In this document: piece after piece, positions 7,749-34,056 of the stretch | Numbering within the stretch: position 1 is the stretch's first letter | How the letters are laid out: every line of letters starts with the position of its first letter | DNA from: an uncultured virus (IMG/VR IMGVR_UViG_3300032167_000096) | Taxonomy: Duplodnaviria; Heunggongvirae; Uroviricota; Caudoviricetes | Virus record (IMG/VR): IMGVR_UViG_3300032167_000096 | Span: 1-64,000 of that record | Direction: 5' to 3' (one strand) | DNA: 64,000 bases | The notes under the pieces: model-generated | Database searches by the model: none | Seen by the model: only the letters and a program-made list of their open reading frames with translations | What the model was told of the DNA's origin: nothing | Translations under genes and position numbers: made by a program

Positions 7749-8312
7749 TTACTCTTGCCTTTCATATAAATTCTTATATAGCTTTTCAATCTTTGCAAAA
7801 GATCTCATTGTAAATCCTACACAAGAATCAGTTTTAAGCAAATGGTCTTTTAAATTACCCATATCCGTATCATCGTCTACAATAATAAACTTATCAGTCT
7901 CTGGATGCATATCCAACCATGCTTGAATTTCATCTCCACGAATTGTCCGTAATACAGGAGTTCTATCGATTACCTCTATTGATTGGCGAAGTCCTCCTTT
8001 GTATAAAGCTTCTTTATAATCATCGGAAACGCGCCATGTTGACGTAACAACTATTTTGAAATTATATTTCTTGCAGAATTCTGAAACCCACTGGCATGCC
8101 TGAAAGTTATTAACAACTCTTGTAGCAAAGCTGCAATGTGTTCCATCTTCATTCCACATTGGAGTATTTACGACTCCATCATAATCAAGAAAAAGAACAT
8201 TGATTTTTACTTTCTCCTTTTCCTGATCTAAGTCTTTATCAGTTATTATTGAAAGAATCTCTTTATGCATTTTGCTATTGTCGCATTGAGATATTATTCC
8301 AATTTGTTTCAT
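7749..8312 (-). CDS. HAD-superfamily phosphatase, Swiss-Army-knife RNA-repair type (HAD_SAK_2-like)
   Basis: VLFLDYDGVVN, IVVTSTWR, RGDEIQAWL, FIIVDDD motifs. Confidence 0.85.
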   Translation of the reverse strand: MKQIGIISQCDNSKMHKEILSIITDKDLDQEKEKVKINVLFLDYDGVVNTPMWNEDGTHCSFATRVVNNFQACQWVSEFCKKYNFKIVVTSTWRVSDDYKEALYKGGLRQSIEVIDRTPVLRTIRGDEIQAWLDMHPETDKFIIVDDDTDMGNLKDHLLKTDSCVGFTMRSFAKIEKLYKNLYERQE

Positions 8313-10907: not shown

Positions 10908-11007
10908 TATTTAACACCTCTTTCTTATTTTTTAGTTGAAGTTATTGTACAACTTCACAGCTTTCTATATTTATATTATATGCTTAAAATAATCATCAAA
11001 AAAAAAT

Positions 11008-11036
11008 AAAGGAAGAGATTAAAATCTCTTCCTTTA
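11008..11036 (-). terminator. Terminator downstream of tRNA
   Basis: AAAGGAAGAGATT/AATCTCTTCCTTT stem with A run on + strand (U tail on - strand). Confidence 0.75.
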
Positions 11037-11039
11037 TGC

Positions 11040-11116
11040 TGGTGGGCCGTGTGAGGCACGATCTCACGGTCTTCTGATTATGAGTCAGGTGCTTTAACCA
11101 TCTAAGCTAACGGCCC
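11040..11116 (-). tRNA. tRNA with CAU anticodon, probably Ile2 (lysidine type) rather than Met
   Basis: GGGCCGT/ACGGCCC acceptor, GCTT/AAGC D-stem, CTGA-CTCATAA-TCAG anticodon arm, GTGAG/CTCAC T-stem, encoded ACCA; C4:G69 and C5:G68 as in TilS substrates. Confidence 0.9.
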
Positions 11117-11177
11117 ATAATAAATAGTTATGCATAATATAAAAGTTAAGAGGGAGGATATTCCTCCCTCTGTTTTC

Positions 11178-12383: not shown

Positions 12384-12525
12384 TTTATTTCTCCTTTTCT
12401 AGTAGCAACTTTAATGTGGTTTATTTTGCTACTCATAATTATATTATATATCTATTAATATACACCTTTACAAAAAAAAATAAAAGAGACTAGCTTCATT
12501 ATTAGAAGCTAGTCTCTTTAATAAT

Positions 12526-14726
12526 TTAGATCAGACTAATATACATCAAGATTTCTTCACAAATCAATTCTGGAATAATCGAGATAGGCTGTCCATCTAA
12601 ACACTCATCCTCAGGGTCGATAATTTCAAATTCAGAACTAAGAATGATAGCAATCAAACTAAGGATATGCTTTTCAATCTTATCATTACGATATTTGTCT
12701 TTTATCTTAGCCCATAGAGGAGAGGACTCAAGTTTAGTCAGTTCTTTTTTATTGACATTCTTGCGAGTAGCCAATCTTGTAACTTTAGAACTGGCAATAT
12801 AAGGCAGCAGAACCATTCCAGAAGCTTCTAAAATACGTTTTGCTGCAATAATAAGCACAATATAATCATCCAAGTTAATAGCATTAATAGTATTCGTATC
12901 TCCAAAGTACTTGAAAAATAAATTAAATACTAAATCTCTCTGGAATGAGTTTACTGTACATTTAGCACCATTAGAAAGACGATGCTTATAGAATTGAATT
13001 TCTTCTTCATCGAAAGGACCATACATCATGCGAATCTGATTCATTGCATCATCACTTGCTGTTTGATTTAATAAAAGCAACGATTCATCGCTCTTTTGCA
13101 AAAAGCTTTCAAATTTATCAAACTCAGAATTAAGATCCTCATCTCTTCTAGACGAAGAAAGACTTACAAATGAATATTCATACTCTATATCTAAAATCTG
13201 GAAACCTGTATTACGCAAAATACTTTTATAGTTAAGATGCACAAGGTTTCCATCATAACGATACTTAGGCATAATGTTGATTAATACATTCTGCACAGAC
13301 TGCAGAGTGTGAATTGTAGTATTAATACCTCTAATATCTTGCATATTCCAAATACCTTGATTTCTTTTTGCAGTTCTCAAGACATTTGAAATAGCTGTTT
13401 CATATAACTTACTATAGATATCAATACCATATTGCTGATTATATTGATTGATCAATATATCATAAACGCTAAGAATAAACTCTGTAGAATTAGTAATTCT
13501 ACGGGCATACATGAAATGACACATAAGTGGAATCATACAATTCATTATGGCAGATACTTTCATCATTATCTGGCCATGCCTCGTAACTTCATACAACATC
13601 GCAAGTTGTACAGTTGTCATCAACTTCTCCAAGATTTGCTTAGAGACGAGACTATATCTTCACCCTCAGCACTGCCTGTTAGGGCGCTCCCCATTTCGGA
13701 ACTCAGCTTGAGCCCTACTCTACTCACTACAATATAAGTTGCTAGGTGGCTACTTATATTATGTTTTCGTTAGTCGTTGAACCTTCTTGCGCGCCTTTGC
13801 CTGGTCTTATGTAAACGTCCATAAAAATTTGCTAGGGATTGATGGGGTTGTGCGAAAATAAGTAATACGTGTTTTTTGTTTGCTAGTGGAAAATAAATCG
13901 TTTTAAAAGTTTCTGGTGCGGATAGTGGGACTTGAACCCACACGAATAAACTCATAGCATCCTAAGTGCTACGTGTCTTCCAATTCCACCATATCCGCTT
14001 AAATACCACATCAAAAACACATCTTCTTTTTTTATAGGCTGACGCGGTGCTTGGCTGCTGGTTATTCATTGTCAATAATGGTTAGACTTTCATCATACAT
14101 CATCTCATCACTCTTTTCTAGATTTCTCTTCTATGGGAGCTTGACTATTTATGCCTTCTCCGGTAGCAGATGAGCTTTAGGATTTCCCAGCAATTAAAGG
14201 AGTTTCTCCTGCTATATTTCTATATCAGGGTGACTGACTCTCAATCACTATATTGCAGATTCGGATTCTTTAAATTCTTATACGTCAAATTAAGAGAGTA
14301 GTTATCTCTATTCATAAACCCAATCTTAAGAGAAATGGATCCATTCATAATATAACGTGTAAGATCATAAAGAAATGCATCTCTATTATATGCCGGCTCT
14401 ACATCAATAAGATATTTAAGACGGCAATATATCATAGGAAGTTCATGTTCTTTATCATAGAACTTCTCAAAATAGTTTAGGTACTGAACTGTATGAGCTC
14501 GCATTTCAGGGTTATTGTATGATCTTTTAGCACTCATAATGAATGCATCAAGTTGTGCATTTGGCTCCATACCATAAAAAGAAGATACATCGAGCATAAT
14601 TGCCCCTCGGATGGTCTTAAAGACTTCATCCTCAGGACACTTCGGTTCCCATGTATCAATAGGTTCAAACGGTATGGGGTCATGGAACTCCATAGGTTCC
14701 AAAAGTTCATGTTGTTGCGTACTCAT
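12526..14726 (-). CDS. Intron-split sigma-like promoter-specificity subunit of the non-virion RNA polymerase (AR9 gp226 / phiKZ gp68-like); exon1 14726-14244, exon2 13581-12526; 512 aa spliced
   Basis: Removing the intron joins ...NPNLQYSD|RHGQIMMKVSAIMNCMIPL... in frame. The size, helical character and early promoter (14758-14767) fit the gp226/gp68 class. The split is directly supported; the family call is from recall. Confidence 0.6.
13582..14243 (-). ncRNA. Group I self-splicing intron without an ORF, carrying a tRNA
   Basis: P1 GUGAU|UGA-GAG-UCA-GUCAC with U.G at the 5' splice site; P AAUUGCUGGGAA, Q AACCAGCAGC, R GGUUCAACGACUA, S AAGAUAUAGUC; terminal G (GUUACG) restores the frame. Confidence 0.93.
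13914..13998 (-). tRNA. tRNA-Leu(UAG), nested in the P6 region of the group I intron
   Basis: GCGGATA/TATCCGC acceptor, TGGTGGAATTGGAAGACAC D-arm, TAGCA-CTTAGGA-TGCTA anticodon arm, long variable arm, GTGGG-TTCAAGT-CCCAC T-arm, encoded ACCA; 85 nt. Confidence 0.95.
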
Positions 14727-14757
14727 AGTTAGTTACCTCCCCAAATTGTTTCATATC

Positions 14758-14767
14758 TATATTATAT
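14758..14767 (-). promoter_or_regulatory. Early-type promoter motif ATATA(A/T/C)TATA (representative copy)
   Basis: ATATAATATA about 30 nt upstream of the sigma-like gene; recurs before non-structural operons; resembles the AT-rich AR9/phiKZ early consensus. Confidence 0.6.
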
Positions 14768-14770
14768 ATT

Positions 14771-15556
14771 TCATTTCTTGTTTACCCTTTTAACAGTTTT
14801 GGCTCGTGATACGGTTTTAGCCATTGGAGAAGTCCTCACGGAAGGAGCAGAACCGATAGTTTTATTTAAAGCAGATAGCGCATTTCTATGCTCTTCATTT
14901 TTTGTTTTTGCTTCTTCTCTCTTCTCTTTAGCTCTTTCTTTTGCCTCCTTTTCACCAAGCTCTTGCCTTAGAGCAATCTTATCATCTGTATGCATAACTT
15001 TAGAAGCTAGCTTACCAGGAGTATATTCTACTCCATATGATTCATACATTGCCTTAGAAAACAAATTCTTAGTTTTCATAAAAAGATAAGCAAAATAGAG
15101 GATCTTGCTATAGCCAGGAACTTCATATGGGTTCTTCTCTTTAGGATCTTTCTTGAGAGCAAGTTTGGAAGACTTGGATTTCAAGTCTTCAATAAATAAA
15201 CCATTCTTCAAAAATACGCGTAAGTATGTAAATACAAATGCTGGATCATTTGAAAAGAACTTAACAAAGTAGTCCTGTAGGCTGGGTGACGTCCTCTTAG
15301 CCGCATCATTTGTGTAAAATAGAATTACAGCATCATAGTAGAACTTCTTTACAGTCTCAGAAGGTACCTTAATGTGTGCTACATAAAAATCCTTCTTTTT
15401 ATCTACATACAAAGTGTACTCTATTTTACCAGCCTCTCTTAGAAATACTTTATCAAACTTTTCTGTATAAAGTTGCTTATACATATCTCTTTGAGAAAAT
15501 ACAGCATTATGTTTTCCCATAGGATTATCTATGTATTGTTGGAAAGTCATATCCAT
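14771..15556 (-). CDS. Hypothetical protein, basic C-terminus
   Basis: 261-aa ORF with RBS and early motif at 15677-15686; FFSNDPAFVFTY motif. Confidence 0.65.
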   Translation of the reverse strand: MDMTFQQYIDNPMGKHNAVFSQRDMYKQLYTEKFDKVFLREAGKIEYTLYVDKKKDFYVAHIKVPSETVKKFYYDAVILFYTNDAAKRTSPSLQDYFVKFFSNDPAFVFTYLRVFLKNGLFIEDLKSKSSKLALKKDPKEKNPYEVPGYSKILYFAYLFMKTKNLFSKAMYESYGVEYTPGKLASKVMHTDDKIALRQELGEKEAKERAKEKREEAKTKNEEHRNALSALNKTIGSAPSVRTSPMAKTVSRAKTVKRVNKK

Positions 15557-18381: not shown

Positions 18382-19587
18382 TTATTCCTCCGTATCTATG
18401 CAATCAGCTGTCTGATTATATATAACAATACTTAATCTTTTGGTTTGAAGGACAATAAGATATACATATCCATCATGATGCAAATACTGCATTGTAATAC
18501 CTTCGGATTCATTGCTAAATCCACCAATTGCAAGATCAATGTCTGGATTGACTGATTTAAAATATTTATAAATAGAATTAATCTTATCAATAGCATCTTC
18601 ATCATAAACATTGAATCCATGACATCTATAGGATTTGTTTTCGACAAGAGAGCCGTTTTGTTCTTTAAATCTATTGTCTTTGATAATTCCATAATAGAGA
18701 TCTCCGCGATTTGCTTCACAATCGATAGCTATATTTATACTATTACCATCGAGCTCGAGACATGCCAAATCTTGTTTATATCCATTAAGAATTGTAGGGA
18801 AATCAAATTGACCATCTACATAATCTTTTACGCAATCTCTAATTCTTTGGGAAGAACTAATTCTATCTGGTTGCTTATGGGATCCATAATGAATATTATC
18901 AAATCTAGCATTTGCAAGAATAAAGAAAAACTCATGTAGTCGCATCTTATTGCAGCTACCCGGATTGCAATTTTTAATAATATCATATTCAAGAATCCAG
19001 TTATATGGATCATTCTTAAATTCAGTCGCATGATATATACTAGGAATTACATATCCGTGATCGTCAAAATATTCAACGAGCTTATAGTAAGCATTTATGA
19101 GATGAATAATATCTCTTGTTCCCTCATAGTTTTCTTCTTTGTATTCATGCTCCCATAAATCTCTAAGAAATTCGGTAAAGTGATGCATAACTCGTTTAAA
19201 ATGAATTACATCCATTTTATAACTATGAGCATCCACTATTACATTAAAAAGTCCATCTCTAATGACTTTGATTTGATATTCAGGATAAATTTCGTAATCA
19301 TTAAAGTCTTCAACGATTTCAAGTTCACAAATAGGTACAATAGTTGTACCATTATTATCCTTCATTTGGCCAATATAAATAGAGCTAATATAAACATCTT
19401 TTAGCAAACTATAATTACAAAGTCCATGGAAGAATTCAAAAACCTCAATCGCCGTTGGATAATAGCGTCCTTCAGATTCTTTATCTTTAAGATACTTTGT
19501 ATAAAGCGATTCTGTTCTAGAATCGTTTATATTGATATCAAATCGTATATTGCCTTTATCATAGGCGAGTAGATCAATTAATCGCAT
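18382..19587 (-). CDS. Hypothetical protein
   Basis: 401-aa ORF packed in operon. Confidence 0.7.
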   Translation of the reverse strand: MRLIDLLAYDKGNIRFDININDSRTESLYTKYLKDKESEGRYYPTAIEVFEFFHGLCNYSLLKDVYISSIYIGQMKDNNGTTIVPICELEIVEDFNDYEIYPEYQIKVIRDGLFNVIVDAHSYKMDVIHFKRVMHHFTEFLRDLWEHEYKEENYEGTRDIIHLINAYYKLVEYFDDHGYVIPSIYHATEFKNDPYNWILEYDIIKNCNPGSCNKMRLHEFFFILANARFDNIHYGSHKQPDRISSSQRIRDCVKDYVDGQFDFPTILNGYKQDLACLELDGNSINIAIDCEANRGDLYYGIIKDNRFKEQNGSLVENKSYRCHGFNVYDEDAIDKINSIYKYFKSVNPDIDLAIGGFSNESEGITMQYLHHDGYVYLIVLQTKRLSIVIYNQTADCIDTEE

Positions 19588-20108
19588 GGCGTTCCATCCT
19601 CCTCATATAACTCACATATATTACAATAGCCTATATAATCTGTAAGAATACCTATATCTTCTATAGTGCTTCTGTTGGCAAGACTACATCTTACAAAAGT
19701 TAAGGCAATGCCAAGGCAGTTCTGTCCCTTACCATTGCACATACCCCAGTAATTATCGCCCCATGTGTTCCCTTCTACTAAAAGGGCATCTCCTGTATCA
19801 ATAAGCTTTTGTTTAAGATCAGGATTCTGCTCAAATTTCTTGTAAAGAATATCGAGCATAGTATGGAATCTTATTGAATTCCATTCTTCGACATTAATTT
19901 TAACAGATCTTCCAAGCCGTTTGGCTGCTGAAGGATCAAGATTAACGAATTCATCAGCGCGACTTGGATCTTTTTGAGCATGAAATGCAGCTTCAGAATT
20001 GAGATAAGTTCGTCCGTTGTAAGTAACCCTAGCTGGATAAAAGTTGCTAAGGAAGTAATATTCTCCCTCGAACTTGCCAATGATTTTGTGTCCATCGAAT
20101 TCATGCAT
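19578..20108 (-). CDS. NADAR (YbiA-like) family protein
   Basis: YFLSNFYP, SEAAFHAQK, AKRLGR, KFEQNPDL, LIDTGDALLVEG, DNYWG, GKGQNCLG. Confidence 0.92.
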   Translation of the reverse strand: MHEFDGHKIIGKFEGEYYFLSNFYPARVTYNGRTYLNSEAAFHAQKDPSRADEFVNLDPSAAKRLGRSVKINVEEWNSIRFHTMLDILYKKFEQNPDLKQKLIDTGDALLVEGNTWGDNYWGMCNGKGQNCLGIALTFVRCSLANRSTIEDIGILTDYIGYCNICELYEEDGTPCD

Positions 20109-22996: not shown

Positions 22997-25555
22997 TTAA
23001 AATACAGGATCGGAAAGTTTAGATTTGTCAGCATCAAGACAAAGGGTAAGATTGTACAAACTTTGCATAGCTTCTTTATCAGACTTTCTAATGCCTCTTC
23101 CTCCAAGAGTAAAGAAATGAGCCTTGCTATTAAGTTGTTCTGCAAGTTCTTCATTAGCTTCTTCAGAGAAAACGCCTTTTACAGTTGTTTGGTCACCATC
23201 CTAAAAGTTTATGATTCGCAAAATCAATCTCATATTTCTATGAGTGTCGGACTATATCATGCATTTCTGCCCTCCTGCTTCGAAATACCATATGCTTGTA
23301 TTCCTACTCCTTACGGATAGTCTCTGAACTTTGATCAATTTTAACTGAATGGTATTATTTTTGGAATATTGTACTCTTTGCTTACATGCTTCCATCTGTG
23401 GCCTCTAGCTATATGCGATAAATTATATCTCATATTTTCCGTAGGCTCTAATCCTGCGGCAATAATAGCATCCTTATAAGAAGCTCCATTTTCGATAGCT
23501 GATAACATTATTCGAACTTCTGCTTCTTTTAATTTCGACATACCATTATTTTCTCCATAAGTAGAATAACCATCAGACCAGTATTTGGACGCTTGTAGCT
23601 GATCTTGATTATGATTTTTATTAGCTAATTCATGTAAAATATTTTCTTCTTTAGTAACCCATTCCAAATTTTCAGATAAATTATCATATCTTTTTAAATT
23701 TTTATGATTAACTTCAGTTAATAATGTAGGATTTGAATTTTCAATAAATGCTATTGCAACCAATCTATGGATATAAAATGATGCTCTTCCGCCTTTTTGT
23801 AATGATAATTGCACTGTAAAATATCCATTACTTATAGCTGGTTTTAGTGGTCGATTAATTACTTTGCTAAATACTCGACCAAAATTGCTAATCAAATATT
23901 GATTTTCTTTTATTCCGAGAAAATTTATATCTTTCCATTCTTCGAATATCATGGGTTGTATTAGCATCTATATATCACCTCCATTTTCTTGATCCTTAGC
24001 TGCTGATTGCCATGCATTCTATATTATAATATATAGACATGTTTAGGTTTCCAGCAATTCAAGAGGTTTTACGACTACAATGGTGAGGTTTATAGTCGCC
24101 GCCGATACCTTCAAGATACAAATTACTTATATTAAGTGTATCAATAAATCTATTTGATGTATCTTTTCCTATATCATCTTGACGGATTTTTGGATAATTT
24201 TTATAAAACCTAGAACCAAGTACCATTGGCTCAGTAATTGTTGTTGAAGAAATTTTAACCTTTGTTGGGAACTGATTGAAATAGGAATCTATAGGATACC
24301 TGGTAATTAGTATATGTCTATCTTTCACAGATTCCACTGCTGCTTGATATAATATGTCGCACCAAGTTAAATCTCTTTCCATTATAGGCAATTTTCCAAC
24401 ATCAGATTTTGCATACTCTTCTGCGGTCATATTATGGCCTTTAAATCTTAGTCTTACGGTAATTCCTTCTACAGTAGGAACTTCGATAGGAATAAAACGA
24501 TTTGAGAAGCCTGTACAAAATCTATCAATCTCTTTCTTAATTCTCTCATCAGAGAATTCTACTTGGTAATCCTTTGGATGTAAGTATGTAACTTTACCTC
24601 CTTTGACATATGGAATAACAGCATCTCCAGAGAATTCATTCTCAAAGAAACGCCTTACATTATAAACCATAAAGGGAAGGAAATTTACGCATGCTGAAGC
24701 CAAAGGAAGAACAGAATAATCCAAATCTGCTTCTACATCATCTAGTTTTTCAACCTTCAGTTCAGGAGCCGAAAGAACAAGACGAGAAGCATAGTCTGTT
24801 GTTTTACTCATAACAGCTCTACGAAGTACGCCAGTCTTTCCTGGAATAATATTAGTGGTTTTCTCACCACCAATAGTAGTACCAGATCCAAACCAATCAT
24901 AGATTTGTACAAGCGTTTCTTGTACACGACCACGAGTAGCTGCATTGAGGTTTAATCCATATTCTGAAGATTCTTTAAGAGCTTTAACAAAAATAAGAAG
25001 ATTTCTATATAATTCATTAATAGCTCCAACAGAGACATGGCCTTTTTCTGTATTAACGTCTCTATAGTATGCAGGACATACTATAAATTTCTTAATAAAC
25101 ATTTCCGGCTGTCCAATATACTTTTCAAGAAATTGAACTCTCATATCACGCTGTCTAGAATCTGTCCGTTTAAATTTTATCTTATCAATATTTTTATGAA
25201 GAAATGCAATACCATTTTCTCCATCAGGGTCTTCGACTAATTCACCTTTATCATTGATCTTGAAGGTCTTAATGCCATGAATACAATCTTTAATTGCAGA
25301 ATCTACCTTGACCCACATTTTATAAATTAAAGGATTTAAGAAGTATTCACCAAGATCAATATATGCAAAGGTATTAGCTCTATCATACTTAGTAATTCCA
25401 AAGATCTCATTAGATAGCAATCCATCTGGTGTAGGAACAGAATTCCTTACAAAGAAAACAGGATTTGTAATCTCTTTAAGATCATTTACTTTGACTAATC
25501 TTTCAGGATCTATCAGATTAACTCTGAGATGATCACCAGAAAATATATCTGCCAT
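22997..25555 (-). CDS. Multisubunit RNA polymerase beta'-like N-terminal/catalytic subunit, probably virion RNAP (phiKZ gp180-like); intron-split, exon1 25555-24092, exon2 23200-22997; 555 aa spliced
   Basis: DGLLSNEIFG, PAYYRD, GKTGVLRRAVMSKTTDYASRLVLS, ITRYP motifs; splicing restores GGDY|DGDQTTVKGVFSEEANEE, the DxDGD catalytic motif. Exon 2 is absent from the ORF track. Confidence 0.92.
23201..24091 (-). ncRNA. Group I intron with homing endonuclease ORF
   Basis: P1 CGACUAU|...GUAGUCG with U.G; P AAUUGCUGGAAA, Q AAUCAGCAGC, R GUUCAGAGACUA, S AUGAUAUAGUC; ends ...CUUUUAG. Confidence 0.93.
23341..23967 (-). CDS. Intron-encoded HNH homing endonuclease (NUMOD4-like + HNH + HTH; I-HmuI-like)
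   Basis: EEWKDI...YLISNFGRVFS, YIHRLVAIAFI, VNHKNLKRYDN..NLEWVT, GENNGMSKL, RWKHV; own GGAGGT RBS; lies between the Q and R elements. Confidence 0.92.
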   Translation of the reverse strand: MLIQPMIFEEWKDINFLGIKENQYLISNFGRVFSKVINRPLKPAISNGYFTVQLSLQKGGRASFYIHRLVAIAFIENSNPTLLTEVNHKNLKRYDNLSENLEWVTKEENILHELANKNHNQDQLQASKYWSDGYSTYGENNGMSKLKEAEVRIMLSAIENGASYKDAIIAAGLEPTENMRYNLSHIARGHRWKHVSKEYNIPKIIPFS

Positions 25556-32653: not shown

Positions 32654-32757
32654 ATAATTAATGGGATATCTAGAAATAGATATCCCATTTTCTTTTATAA
32701 AATAATAGAGCCTAAACTTAGTAATAATCAAAATTTACATATTTGGAGGAGATAAAT

Positions 32758-34056
32758 ATGTGTTTTAGAAATGGTGGCATGCTAACAGGTGCCGAAATTG
32801 AAAAGCAAATAAAAAAAGGTCATATAGGAATAACTCCCTATGATCCTGTGGCTTTGAACCCAAATAGCTATAATCTTAAGCTACACCCCCAGCTACTTAT
32901 ATATGCAAGAGATTCTGATAGGTCAGACATCCTAAAACCTGATGCAGAATTCCAAGATCCTAATTTTATTAGAGATCTTGAATCTATTCTTTCAATTCTA
33001 GATTCTAGAATTACAGCTATTGAATCAAGAAATTCATTTAATTCTATTGATGCTAGTGGTATTGAGAATAAGTCTAATAGAATTATGAAGAGCATTAAGA
33101 ACAAATCTAAAGCTGAAATGTTTAGAAAGTTCGATACAATTCTTCTTAAAACGAGTTGCCAAAAGAAAGAAACTCAATCTTCGGAAATAGAAAACGAGCA
33201 ATTAAGCTTTTTCCATGAAAATACAGAAGCAGATGGAATTAATAATTCTGAAAATGCTAAGACAGCATATGAATTTGTTAATGATAAACAACTATATGAA
33301 GATTCTAAAGGCAATATTTATGCCAAAGAAAATGGAATTATGAATCTAGTAGAACCTGTTGCTTATGCAGTCACAAATAGAATTGATGATGTTCTTAATA
33401 AGATCGATTTGCTAGAAGATTCTTTCAGCGGAAATATTAATGATATTACAGCTCATATTGAAAATGAATTTGAGCAGATTGATAAAGCATTCGATACTAT
33501 AGATAAAAAGATCATTTCTACGGATATTGCTAGAAAGCAAGCTGATACTAAGCTTAGAAATGAGTTTATCGGATCGATTTCTGATATTACAAAAAGACTT
33601 GAATACTATATTTCTTCGCTTCGTGATTATATTCAGAATAACTTTGTTAAGAAAGATTTTCTTGCTCCTCTTGATATGATGAAAGAGAATAAGACTATTG
33701 AATTGACAATTCCTGAAGAAGGTCTTGTTCTTCAGCCTGGAGTTCTTTATATTGGGCGTACAGTTGAAAGAACTTGGAGTGATAAATTTATTCCTATGAT
33801 TAATGGCCGTTCATCTGGTGGCCGTCTTGGTATCTCTGTTCATGTTTGTGCAGGATTTGGAGATATTGGATTTGATGGCACATGGACGCTTGAGATTACT
33901 GTTGTAGAGCCTATTCGTATATATGCAAATACTGATATTGCTCAGGTTTGTTATTTTAAGCCTTGTGGCAAGGTAGGAAAACTTTATAGAGGCAGATATT
34001 ATAAACAGGAAGAAGCTACAGCAAGTAGATTTTATAAGCCTAAGGAGGATATTTAA
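32758..34056 (+). CDS. dcd: dCTP deaminase with ~250-aa internal insertion
   Basis: MLTGAEI...LNPNSYNLKL at the N-terminus; LQPG..YIGRT.E, GRSSGGRLG, AGFGDIGFDGTWTLEI, IAQVCY, YRGRY at the C-terminus. Confidence 0.88.
   Translation: MCFRNGGMLTGAEIEKQIKKGHIGITPYDPVALNPNSYNLKLHPQLLIYARDSDRSDILKPDAEFQDPNFIRDLESILSILDSRITAIESRNSFNSIDASGIENKSNRIMKSIKNKSKAEMFRKFDTILLKTSCQKKETQSSEIENEQLSFFHENTEADGINNSENAKTAYEFVNDKQLYEDSKGNIYAKENGIMNLVEPVAYAVTNRIDDVLNKIDLLEDSFSGNINDITAHIENEFEQIDKAFDTIDKKIISTDIARKQADTKLRNEFIGSISDITKRLEYYISSLRDYIQNNFVKKDFLAPLDMMKENKTIELTIPEEGLVLQPGVLYIGRTVERTWSDKFIPMINGRSSGGRLGISVHVCAGFGDIGFDGTWTLEITVVEPIRIYANTDIAQVCYFKPCGKVGKLYRGRYYKQEEATASRFYKPKEDI

Follow-up and report, generated by a model that had tools for sequence, protein, structure and literature searches.

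Why should a phage keep a complete tRNA gene inside a ribozyme that itself interrupts the gene for an RNA polymerase (RNAP) subunit? The question is raised by a stretch of 64,000 nucleotides (hereafter the window) from an uncultured virus of the Caudoviricetes, IMG/VR record IMGVR_UViG_3300032167_000096, in which a segment on the minus strand (i.e. 13582-14243) separates two open reading frames (ORFs) and contains a gene for tRNA-Leu(UAG). An earlier note, made from the letters alone, had proposed that the segment is a group I intron splitting the gene of a sigma-like RNAP subunit, with the tRNA as its cargo. The source record comprises 73,951 bases with 35% G+C, and the near-complete phage G001 has 223,865 bases (~224 kb; 90% complete); the phage is a giant gut phage, an AR9-like jumbo phage. 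Comparative analysis largely supported what the element is: probably a vertically inherited, endonuclease-less group I intron in a gp226-like gene, which carries at the tip of its P6 helix a working tRNA-Leu that would be released from the intron transcript.

The boundaries and core of the intron were examined by direct reading and with Rfam. The Intron_gpI model (RF00028) matched 13627-14253 (minus) over its full length (model positions 1-253) with 38.9 bits, a match taken by E-value threshold (E 6.9e-8 with 2 kb searched, 2.2e-6 with 64 kb), and the alignment displayed P4 and the Q, R and S elements. P1 comprises 8 bp (GUGAU/UGA with UCAGUCAC), among them the U.G pair formed at the 5' splice site by the final base of exon 1, U 14244. 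The intron ends at G 13582, and excision of the 662 nt fuses ...LQYSD to RHGQ... in frame. Both the U.G pair of P1 and the terminal G recur in all five introns known at this site. An alignment of these five contained 17 helices from P1 to P9 with 95 pairs, including the P3/P7 pseudoknot and P7.1/P7.2. In this structure, most of which was taken from RNAalifold on the same alignment (a procedure that works in its favour), 98.1% of 469 cells were paired and 29 of the 95 pairs showed compensatory, i.e. both-side, change. When the 3' partners were slid, at most five compensatory pairs were obtained, and none of 500 shuffles reached the observed value. P3, P4, P6 and P7 were invariant in the five introns, which is consistent with the structure and provides no covariation. 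Subgroup IA is defined by two extra hairpins, P7.1 and P7.2, between P7 and P3'; two such hairpins were found at 13699-13770, with 2 and 3 compensatory pairs, and by this sequence criterion the intron is IA-like. No homing-endonuclease gene was found in the window intron, where the largest sense-strand ORF (the sole one of at least 40 aa) has 61 aa and overlaps the tRNA; the HNH ORFs of related introns have 202-367 aa. The Rfam match, the compensatory pairs and the 22 of 27 relatives that lack the insert (see below) confirmed, at the level of comparative sequence analysis, the proposal of a 662-nt group I intron with a full core and an in-frame LQYSD/RHGQ junction in the gp226-like gene. Guanosine-dependent self-splicing would be expected of such an intron.

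The interrupted gene is, by profile comparison, a homologue of AR9 gp226, the sigma-like promoter-specificity subunit of the non-virion RNAP (nvRNAP). A profile built from 11 intronless homologues matched a 464-aa chain labelled 'DNA-directed RNA polymerase subunit' in PDB entries 7s01, 7um0 and 7um1 with E 3.3e-20; this was the sole PDB sequence matched, and the match to 7s01_A covered residues 28-456 of 464. According to passages of PMC9209446, these three entries are AR9 nvRNAP promoter complexes and holoenzyme and 7S00 is the core without gp226. As the 464-aa chain is missing from the core entry and present in the other three, we take it to be gp226, a protein also presented as a sigma-like promoter-specificity subunit in passages of PMC7598289. 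Exon 2 was additionally matched by phrog_25005 ('RNA polymerase'; E 1.6e-12, profile positions 137-420 of 464) and is 22.8% identical to phiR1-37 g245. The chain match bears out the proposal that a sigma-like RNAP subunit gene is split, and the window subunit is predicted to confer promoter recognition on the nvRNAP core. In the profile alignment the intron site, D161/R of the window protein, maps between D133 and N134 of gp226 and lies in the N-terminal domain, inside a conserved motif (LQ-x-[ST]-[DN]). No match to isolated phages was obtained by megablast of 12400-14800, and tblastn with exon 1 likewise returned nothing.

The tRNA was assessed by gene prediction, by structural comparison between lineages and by folding. 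ARAGORN called a tRNA-Leu(tag) at 13914-13998 (minus), and the 58.4 bits of the Rfam tRNA model (RF00005; E 4.9e-10, 64 kb) exceed its gathering score of 29. A 261-nt insertion within P6 of the Rfam intron alignment contains this tRNA, so that all three results agree with the 85-nt CCA-ending tRNA-Leu(UAG) that had been placed in the P6 extension on the same strand. Four of the five same-site introns carry an intact tRNA, and these are mutually only 51-67% identical. Across the four lineages, pairing is retained in 95.2% of the stem cells, with compensatory change in 14 of 21 pairs; slid controls gave at most three compensatory pairs and none of 500 shuffles reached the observed value. U8, A14, G18G19, U33, T54-T55-C56, A58, A73 and CCA are invariant in all four. 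The identity marks of leucine tRNAs are a long variable arm and discriminator A73; all four have A73 and a variable region of 13-15 nt. Position 37 tracks position 36, UAG being found with G37 and UAA with A37, a coupling that is the pattern expected of decoding tRNAs. In a strain variant from sequencing run X5, read by hand, the anticodon stem is changed from UAGCA/UGCUA to CAAGU/ACUUG, with the loop CUUAGGA unchanged. These comparisons show that the tRNA fold and the anticodon loop are under selection across diverged phages, and we infer that the locus yields a mature, aminoacylated tRNA-Leu.

Folds of the Q-to-R segment in which the cloverleaf was enforced lay 1.6-8.2 kcal/mol above the free minimum for the four intact copies and yielded P6, P6a and P6b, followed by a long closing stem that bears the tRNA at its tip. 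The closing stem of the window has ~19 bp and includes AUGUGUUUUU with AAAAAACACGU; the earlier suggestion that the flanks pair and loop the tRNA out is thus matched and extended to P6, P6a, P6b and the ~19 bp. Analogous closing stems of differing sequence were present in L043, L022, L020 and L051. Misassembly, named beforehand as a ground for refutation, is countered by run X5, which comes from another study and in which one independent 2180-nt DNA contig spans 13300-14700. Loci L001 and L002 also have both exons identical to those of the window and the tRNA at the same place.

Having defined the intron and its cargo, we examined their distribution among relatives. A search with the exon 2 protein returned 27 viral loci on contigs of ~29-271 kb, the majority between 160 and 270 kb. 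Exon 1 and exon 2 homologues are directly joined at the intron point (D161/R) in 22 of these loci, and five carry an insert of 621-662 nt at the same point (L001 and L002; L020 and L027; L022). A metagenome scan with an intron-core (R-to-P3') pattern gave 16 loci, two of which (L043 and L051) represent the same gene and the same site. This gave five distinct same-site introns, for which ARAGORN called tRNA-Leu(UAG) in the window and L043 and tRNA-Leu(UAA) in L020 and L051; that of L022 has a remnant. Same-site introns were confined to a subclade whose exon proteins are at least 72% identical to those of the window, and the next relative, L004 (61-74% identical), has no insert. This distribution fits vertical inheritance of the intron within one clade. 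The comparison of alleles advocated in the earlier note accordingly found relatives in which the gene is intronless at the site (22/27), tRNA-bearing at the site or interrupted elsewhere by HNH introns.

Two of the same-site introns are informative in themselves. In L051 the frame is closed by a stop 3 nt upstream of exon 2 and there is no start codon, so that exon 2 would be expressible only after splicing. In L022 the intron core is 96.4% identical to that of L043 and the tRNA region only 70%; what is left of the tRNA is an acceptor-like stem and a T-arm-like hairpin, both the D arm and the anticodon arm being gone, and neither ARAGORN nor Rfam (E up to 1) detected it. Because divergence is much greater in the tRNA segment than elsewhere in the intron, we read the L022 tRNA as decayed, and a reading of it as a selected, cut-down 'top half' was set aside for the same reason. 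The suggestion that the tRNA makes the intron worth keeping is conjectural; L022 retains its intron with the tRNA decayed.

Searches beyond the site returned no further tRNA-bearing introns. The other 14 metagenome loci with the R-to-P3' pattern had no tRNA, and none was found in 80 sampled viral loci sharing the 14-nt R element (among at least 116 stretches). A 17-nt P5 pattern was abandoned, as 10 of its 15 viral loci were chance matches without an intron. DNA run X2 contains joints at which 391-395 nt are skipped and ~33 other letters intervene; these were attributed to other compact introns with the same core and rejected as deletion alleles. In isolated or deposited phages, the closest look-alikes of the tRNA (H3 and H4; 75-78% identical) are tRNA-Leu(UAG) genes that stand free, with neither an intron core nor gp226-like exons around them.

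The position of the tRNA within the ribozyme was compared with that of endonuclease genes. A second intron of the window, at ~23201-24091 (minus; ~891 nt), has a P1 (GACUAU/GUAGUC) with its U.G after 24092, a terminal G at 23201 and an in-frame, phase 0 junction; it splits a gene consisting of an ORF at 24059-25555 and a second exon of ~67 codons ending near 22998. Rfam returned two weak half-matches for it (20.9 and 15.7 bits). Its HNH ORF (23341-23967; NUMOD4 and HNH_3) lies between Q-like and R-like elements, i.e. at the P6 position, as had been claimed when this gene was said to occupy the same slot as the tRNA. All four long introns elsewhere in the gp226-like gene of relatives have HNH_3 ORFs, the P6 slot itself being one seen in the second window intron. 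It is plausible that the tRNA is cargo in place of an endonuclease gene.

Two further observations concern such introns. The gp226-like gene is crowded with introns in close relatives, tblastn giving five breaks in L022 (L022:1-5779) and four in L020 (L020:600-5000), with four Rfam matches above the gathering score in each; two full introns of L020 (2057-2319 and 2339-2567) are separated by only ~19-21 nt of exon. A different group I intron (L053; 40.2 bits), on a 1.3-kb metagenome contig, has a P6 insert of ~245 nt in which hairpins resembling a T arm (loop TTCGAAT) and a D arm accompany a perfect 'acceptor' pairing of 7 bp across ~190 nt. ARAGORN and Rfam detected no tRNA in this insert, which may be another tRNA-derived one.

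A mechanism can be proposed for the release of the tRNA. Co-transcription is the simplest route because no promoter- or terminator-like signal stands out near the tRNA and the terminator of the gene lies past exon 2; the tRNA, with no promoter or terminator of its own, would be transcribed within the pre-mRNA. The ribozyme would join the exons into a full-length subunit mRNA, and host RNase P would free the tRNA from the intron RNA by cleaving at the tRNA 5' end. This enzyme recognises the stacked acceptor and T arms in any context, so that both the precursor and the excised intron could be its substrate. As the CCA is encoded, the 3' side would be matured most readily by trimming down to it from the 3' terminus that excision frees on the intron. 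The mature tRNA would then add leucine-decoding capacity in a phage with one other tRNA; its use to make up for host tRNA lost to anticodon nucleases, raised in the earlier note, is conjectural. In the transcript the tRNA lies ahead of the 3' half of the core, and a T4 td intron split in the P6a loop reportedly undergoes trans-splicing. A version that we regard as rather unlikely makes the tRNA both product and switch: RNase P would cut within P6 before splicing, the P6a-P6c stems (at least 19 bp) would hold the halves together, the exons would be joined in trans, and the yield of the late-promoter specificity subunit would hinge on the balance between splicing and host tRNA processing. In a bolder form, the tRNA-Leu domain would recruit leucyl-tRNA synthetase (LeuRS) as a splicing cofactor.

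Several points weigh against a spliced intron that releases a working tRNA, and these are considered here with the rival explanations. The 38.9 bits of the window intron lie under the RF00028 gathering score of 50 bits; the score is lowered by the 261-nt P6 insertion, and the same-site sister introns of L020 (51.0 bits) and L022 (50.5 bits) clear the threshold. Unlikely, yet the strongest competitor, is that the tRNA is real and has its own phage-specific promoter inside the intron, with P6 serving as a safe harbour and the intron transcript not being the tRNA precursor. These phages use their own RNAPs, and an internal promoter is conceivable; by sequence reading, only 4 nt separate the tRNA of L051 from the end of an AR9-like late motif (AACA-N6-TA), and the free-standing tRNA-Met of the window phage is followed by a terminator of its own. 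The AR9 late motif (AACA-N6-T[AG]) has a density in the whole contig of 1.84/kb within 100 nt upstream of ORFs as compared to 0.43/kb genome-wide (11 and 64 matches; 4.3-fold). The window intron, however, has no match to it, the region upstream of the tRNA is unconserved between lineages, no terminator-like hairpin with a T run follows the tRNA within the intron, and the motif is short enough to occur by chance. Sigma-70-like sites were not above shuffles (28 as compared to 21.7 ± 4.5 expected). Ribosome-binding sites of the AAGGAGG type were strongly enriched upstream of ORFs in the contig. The sole RNA run with any of the stretch (X20, matching 5% of its words) gave one 233-nt contig at 13817-14051 (depth 2.3), which is limited to the tRNA with the P6 flanks on either side and may stem from carried-over DNA. 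This single low-depth contig covers neither exon nor joint and is neutral on splicing. Codon usage offers a weak trend from one genome per lineage. Leucine is encoded by CTT (48%), TTA (16%) and CTA (9-10%) in the window phage, TTA reaches 27% in the UAA-bearing G002 and 65% in the tRNA-less G004, and CTA is 4% in G003, which has lost the tRNA. A UAG anticodon could serve several CUN codons, depending on modification. The direction fits an argument from codon supply, which with one genome per state was set aside as evidence.

It is quite improbable that the cloverleaf is kept for the intron itself, either as a folding scaffold or as a handle recruiting LeuRS or RNase P to aid or gate splicing. 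Mitochondrial LeuRS and tyrosyl-tRNA synthetase (TyrRS) are splicing cofactors of group I introns, and L022 retains a minihelix (6-bp acceptor-like stem, 5-bp T-arm and T-loop-like loop) after loss of its anticodon arm. Against this, the anticodon loop is conserved, including the 36/37 coupling, in tRNAs whose stems turn over, none of the 80 sampled introns sharing the R element needs such a domain, and the L022 remnant, with 70% identity to L043 as compared to 96% for the rest of the intron, looks like decay. The tRNA is dispensable in at least one relative, since the L022 intron persists with a decayed copy, and one could take all copies for neutral passengers on the way to pseudogenes. Related phages G003, G004 and G005 are likewise without any tRNA (G001 has two, Met(CAU) and the intronic Leu(UAG); G002 has Met(CAU) and the intronic Leu(UAA)). 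Neutrality is nevertheless very unlikely given 14 of 21 compensatory stem pairs at 51-67% identity and the retention of all universal tRNA positions. The two halves of the gene might, finally, be translated separately without splicing. In the window, exon 2 is preceded at 39 nt by an in-frame ATG, itself 6 nt downstream of a GGAG, so that separate translation of the second half is conceivable in the window phage; a stop directly follows exon 1 in four of five lineages, and split RNAP genes are typical of such phages in the passages of PMC7598289. The GGAG-N6-ATG start is unconserved, L051 being without a usable start for the second half, the break interrupts a conserved motif within one domain, and the gene is continuous in 22 of 27 relatives. 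Together with a full group I core supported by covariation, this makes a truly split gene extremely unlikely. The preferred explanation remains an intron with a working tRNA in P6.

Related arrangements differ from this one in cargo, position or topology. In T4 td-type phage IA introns, a homing-endonuclease ORF is looped out of a peripheral helix. Phage IA endonuclease introns, including the second of the window, have the same kind of core with near-identical Q, R and S elements and likewise lie in a conserved motif of an essential phage gene with the P6 loop as cargo slot, whereas the window intron has a tRNA as cargo, no endonuclease and a distribution fitting vertical inheritance in one clade. 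Cyanobacterial and plastid tRNA-Leu(UAA) genes have a group I intron in the anticodon loop. The players are the same, i.e. a group I ribozyme and tRNA-Leu (with UAA in L020 and L051), but they are nested the opposite way round: the tRNA contains the intron there, and the intron contains the tRNA here. That intron belongs to subgroup IC3, the window intron being IA-like, and no evidence of common descent between the two was found. Eukaryotic small nucleolar RNAs (snoRNAs) are hosted in spliceosomal introns. They are similar in that a stable non-coding RNA comes from an excised intron, with its synthesis tied to transcription of the host gene, and differ in intron class, processing enzymes and domain of life. 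The earlier note knew of no tRNA within a group I intron; this stands for phages and bacteria, for which full-text literature searches found no case, and fails for organelles, where precedents exist (PMC6545197, PMC7902536). Passages of PMC6545197 describe the ND5-717 group I intron of corallimorpharian mitochondria, which resembles the window intron in that host-function genes, including one tRNA gene among many, are expressed from a peripheral helix. It differs in being organellar, in using P8, in its ~18 kb comprising nearly the whole genome and in its removal by back-splicing of a permuted transcript (PMC6545197, same passages), whereas the phage intron has 662 nt and a single tRNA in P6 as its sole cargo. 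Putative tRNA genes have also been annotated in protein-gene introns of Ophiostomatales mitogenomes (O. minus atp6-i1; trnR in cox1-1281). These are organellar and known by annotation, the relevant passages of PMC7902536 giving no structure, ribozyme position or conservation.

Table 1. Coordinates of the gp226-like gene, its group I intron and the intronic tRNA in the window.
Feature	Position	Strand	Basis
Exon 1 of gp226-like gene, 161 codons, ends ...LQYSD	14244..14726	-	ORF; homologous to N-terminal part of uninterrupted genes at 22/27 related loci
P1, 5' exon end with internal guide, U.G at U 14244	14230..14248	-	Direct reading; U.G in 5/5 introns
Group I intron, IA-like, without endonuclease ORF, 662 nt	13582..14243	-	RF00028, 38.9 bits; covariation
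P2 hairpin, GAAA loop	14208..14229	-	4/8 pairs compensatory
P3 5' strand, P4, extended P5, P4' (Q element), P6 5' strand	14053..14202	-	Rfam alignment; helices 3-10
5' strands of P6 extension (P6a, P6b, P6c) up to tRNA	13999..14052	-	Constrained folds; P6b 3/4 pairs compensatory
tRNA-Leu(UAG), 85 nt, class II (long variable arm), A73, CCA encoded	13914..13998	-	ARAGORN; Rfam
3' trailer of tRNA and 3' strands of P6 extension	13784..13913	-	Folds
R element: P6 3' strand (GGU), J6/7, P7 5' strand	13771..13783	-	Invariant in 5/5 introns; Rfam alignment
P7.1 and P7.2 hairpins	13699..13770	-	Helices 13, 14
P3 3' strand, P8, P7 3' strand (S element), P9	13627..13692	-	Rfam alignment; helices 3, 12, 15, 16
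Terminal G (omega G), followed by exon 2	13582..13582	-	Direct reading; CG/A at 3' junction in 5/5 introns
Exon 2, 351 codons and stop, starts RHGQ...	12526..13581	-	phrog_25005 and phiR1-37 g245 matches
Terminator-like hairpin directly past the gene	12483..12519	-	None as strong within the intron

Other features of the genome were recorded. The tRNA-Met(CAU) gene at 11040-11116 (minus) is free-standing, with hairpins on both sides (11149-11171 and 11006-11037). A 437-aa protein at 32743-34056 (plus) contains a dCTP-deaminase-like domain (PF22769, E 2e-32); together with the RNAP subunit of AR9/phiR1-37 type, this hints by analogy at a uracil-containing genome like those of AR9 and phiR1-37. 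The ORF at 7749-8312 (minus) encodes a HAD domain of 'Swiss Army Knife' RNA-repair proteins (PF18143, E 5.7e-23) and that at 19578-20108 (minus) a NADAR domain protein (E 1.4e-24), making RNA-repair or ADP-ribose-reversal functions possible in this tRNA-carrying phage. A single ORF of 3868 codons occupies 54862-66468 (minus) of contig G000 and runs past the window.

To our knowledge, phage group I introns have been regarded as selfish, with a homing endonuclease as their sole cargo. The window intron instead carries a host-type translation gene, which is maintained by selection across diverged phages, and would serve as a platform from which a small RNA is expressed, in the way that eukaryotic introns serve snoRNAs. 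Standard annotation would give two ORFs and a free-standing tRNA and so overlook the full-length sigma-like subunit. Two ancient ribozyme systems, group I splicing and RNase P, would meet on one transcript, where their kinetic competition is testable, and the supply of a tRNA would be tied to expression of the factor responsible for turning on late transcription in a jumbo phage of AR9 type.

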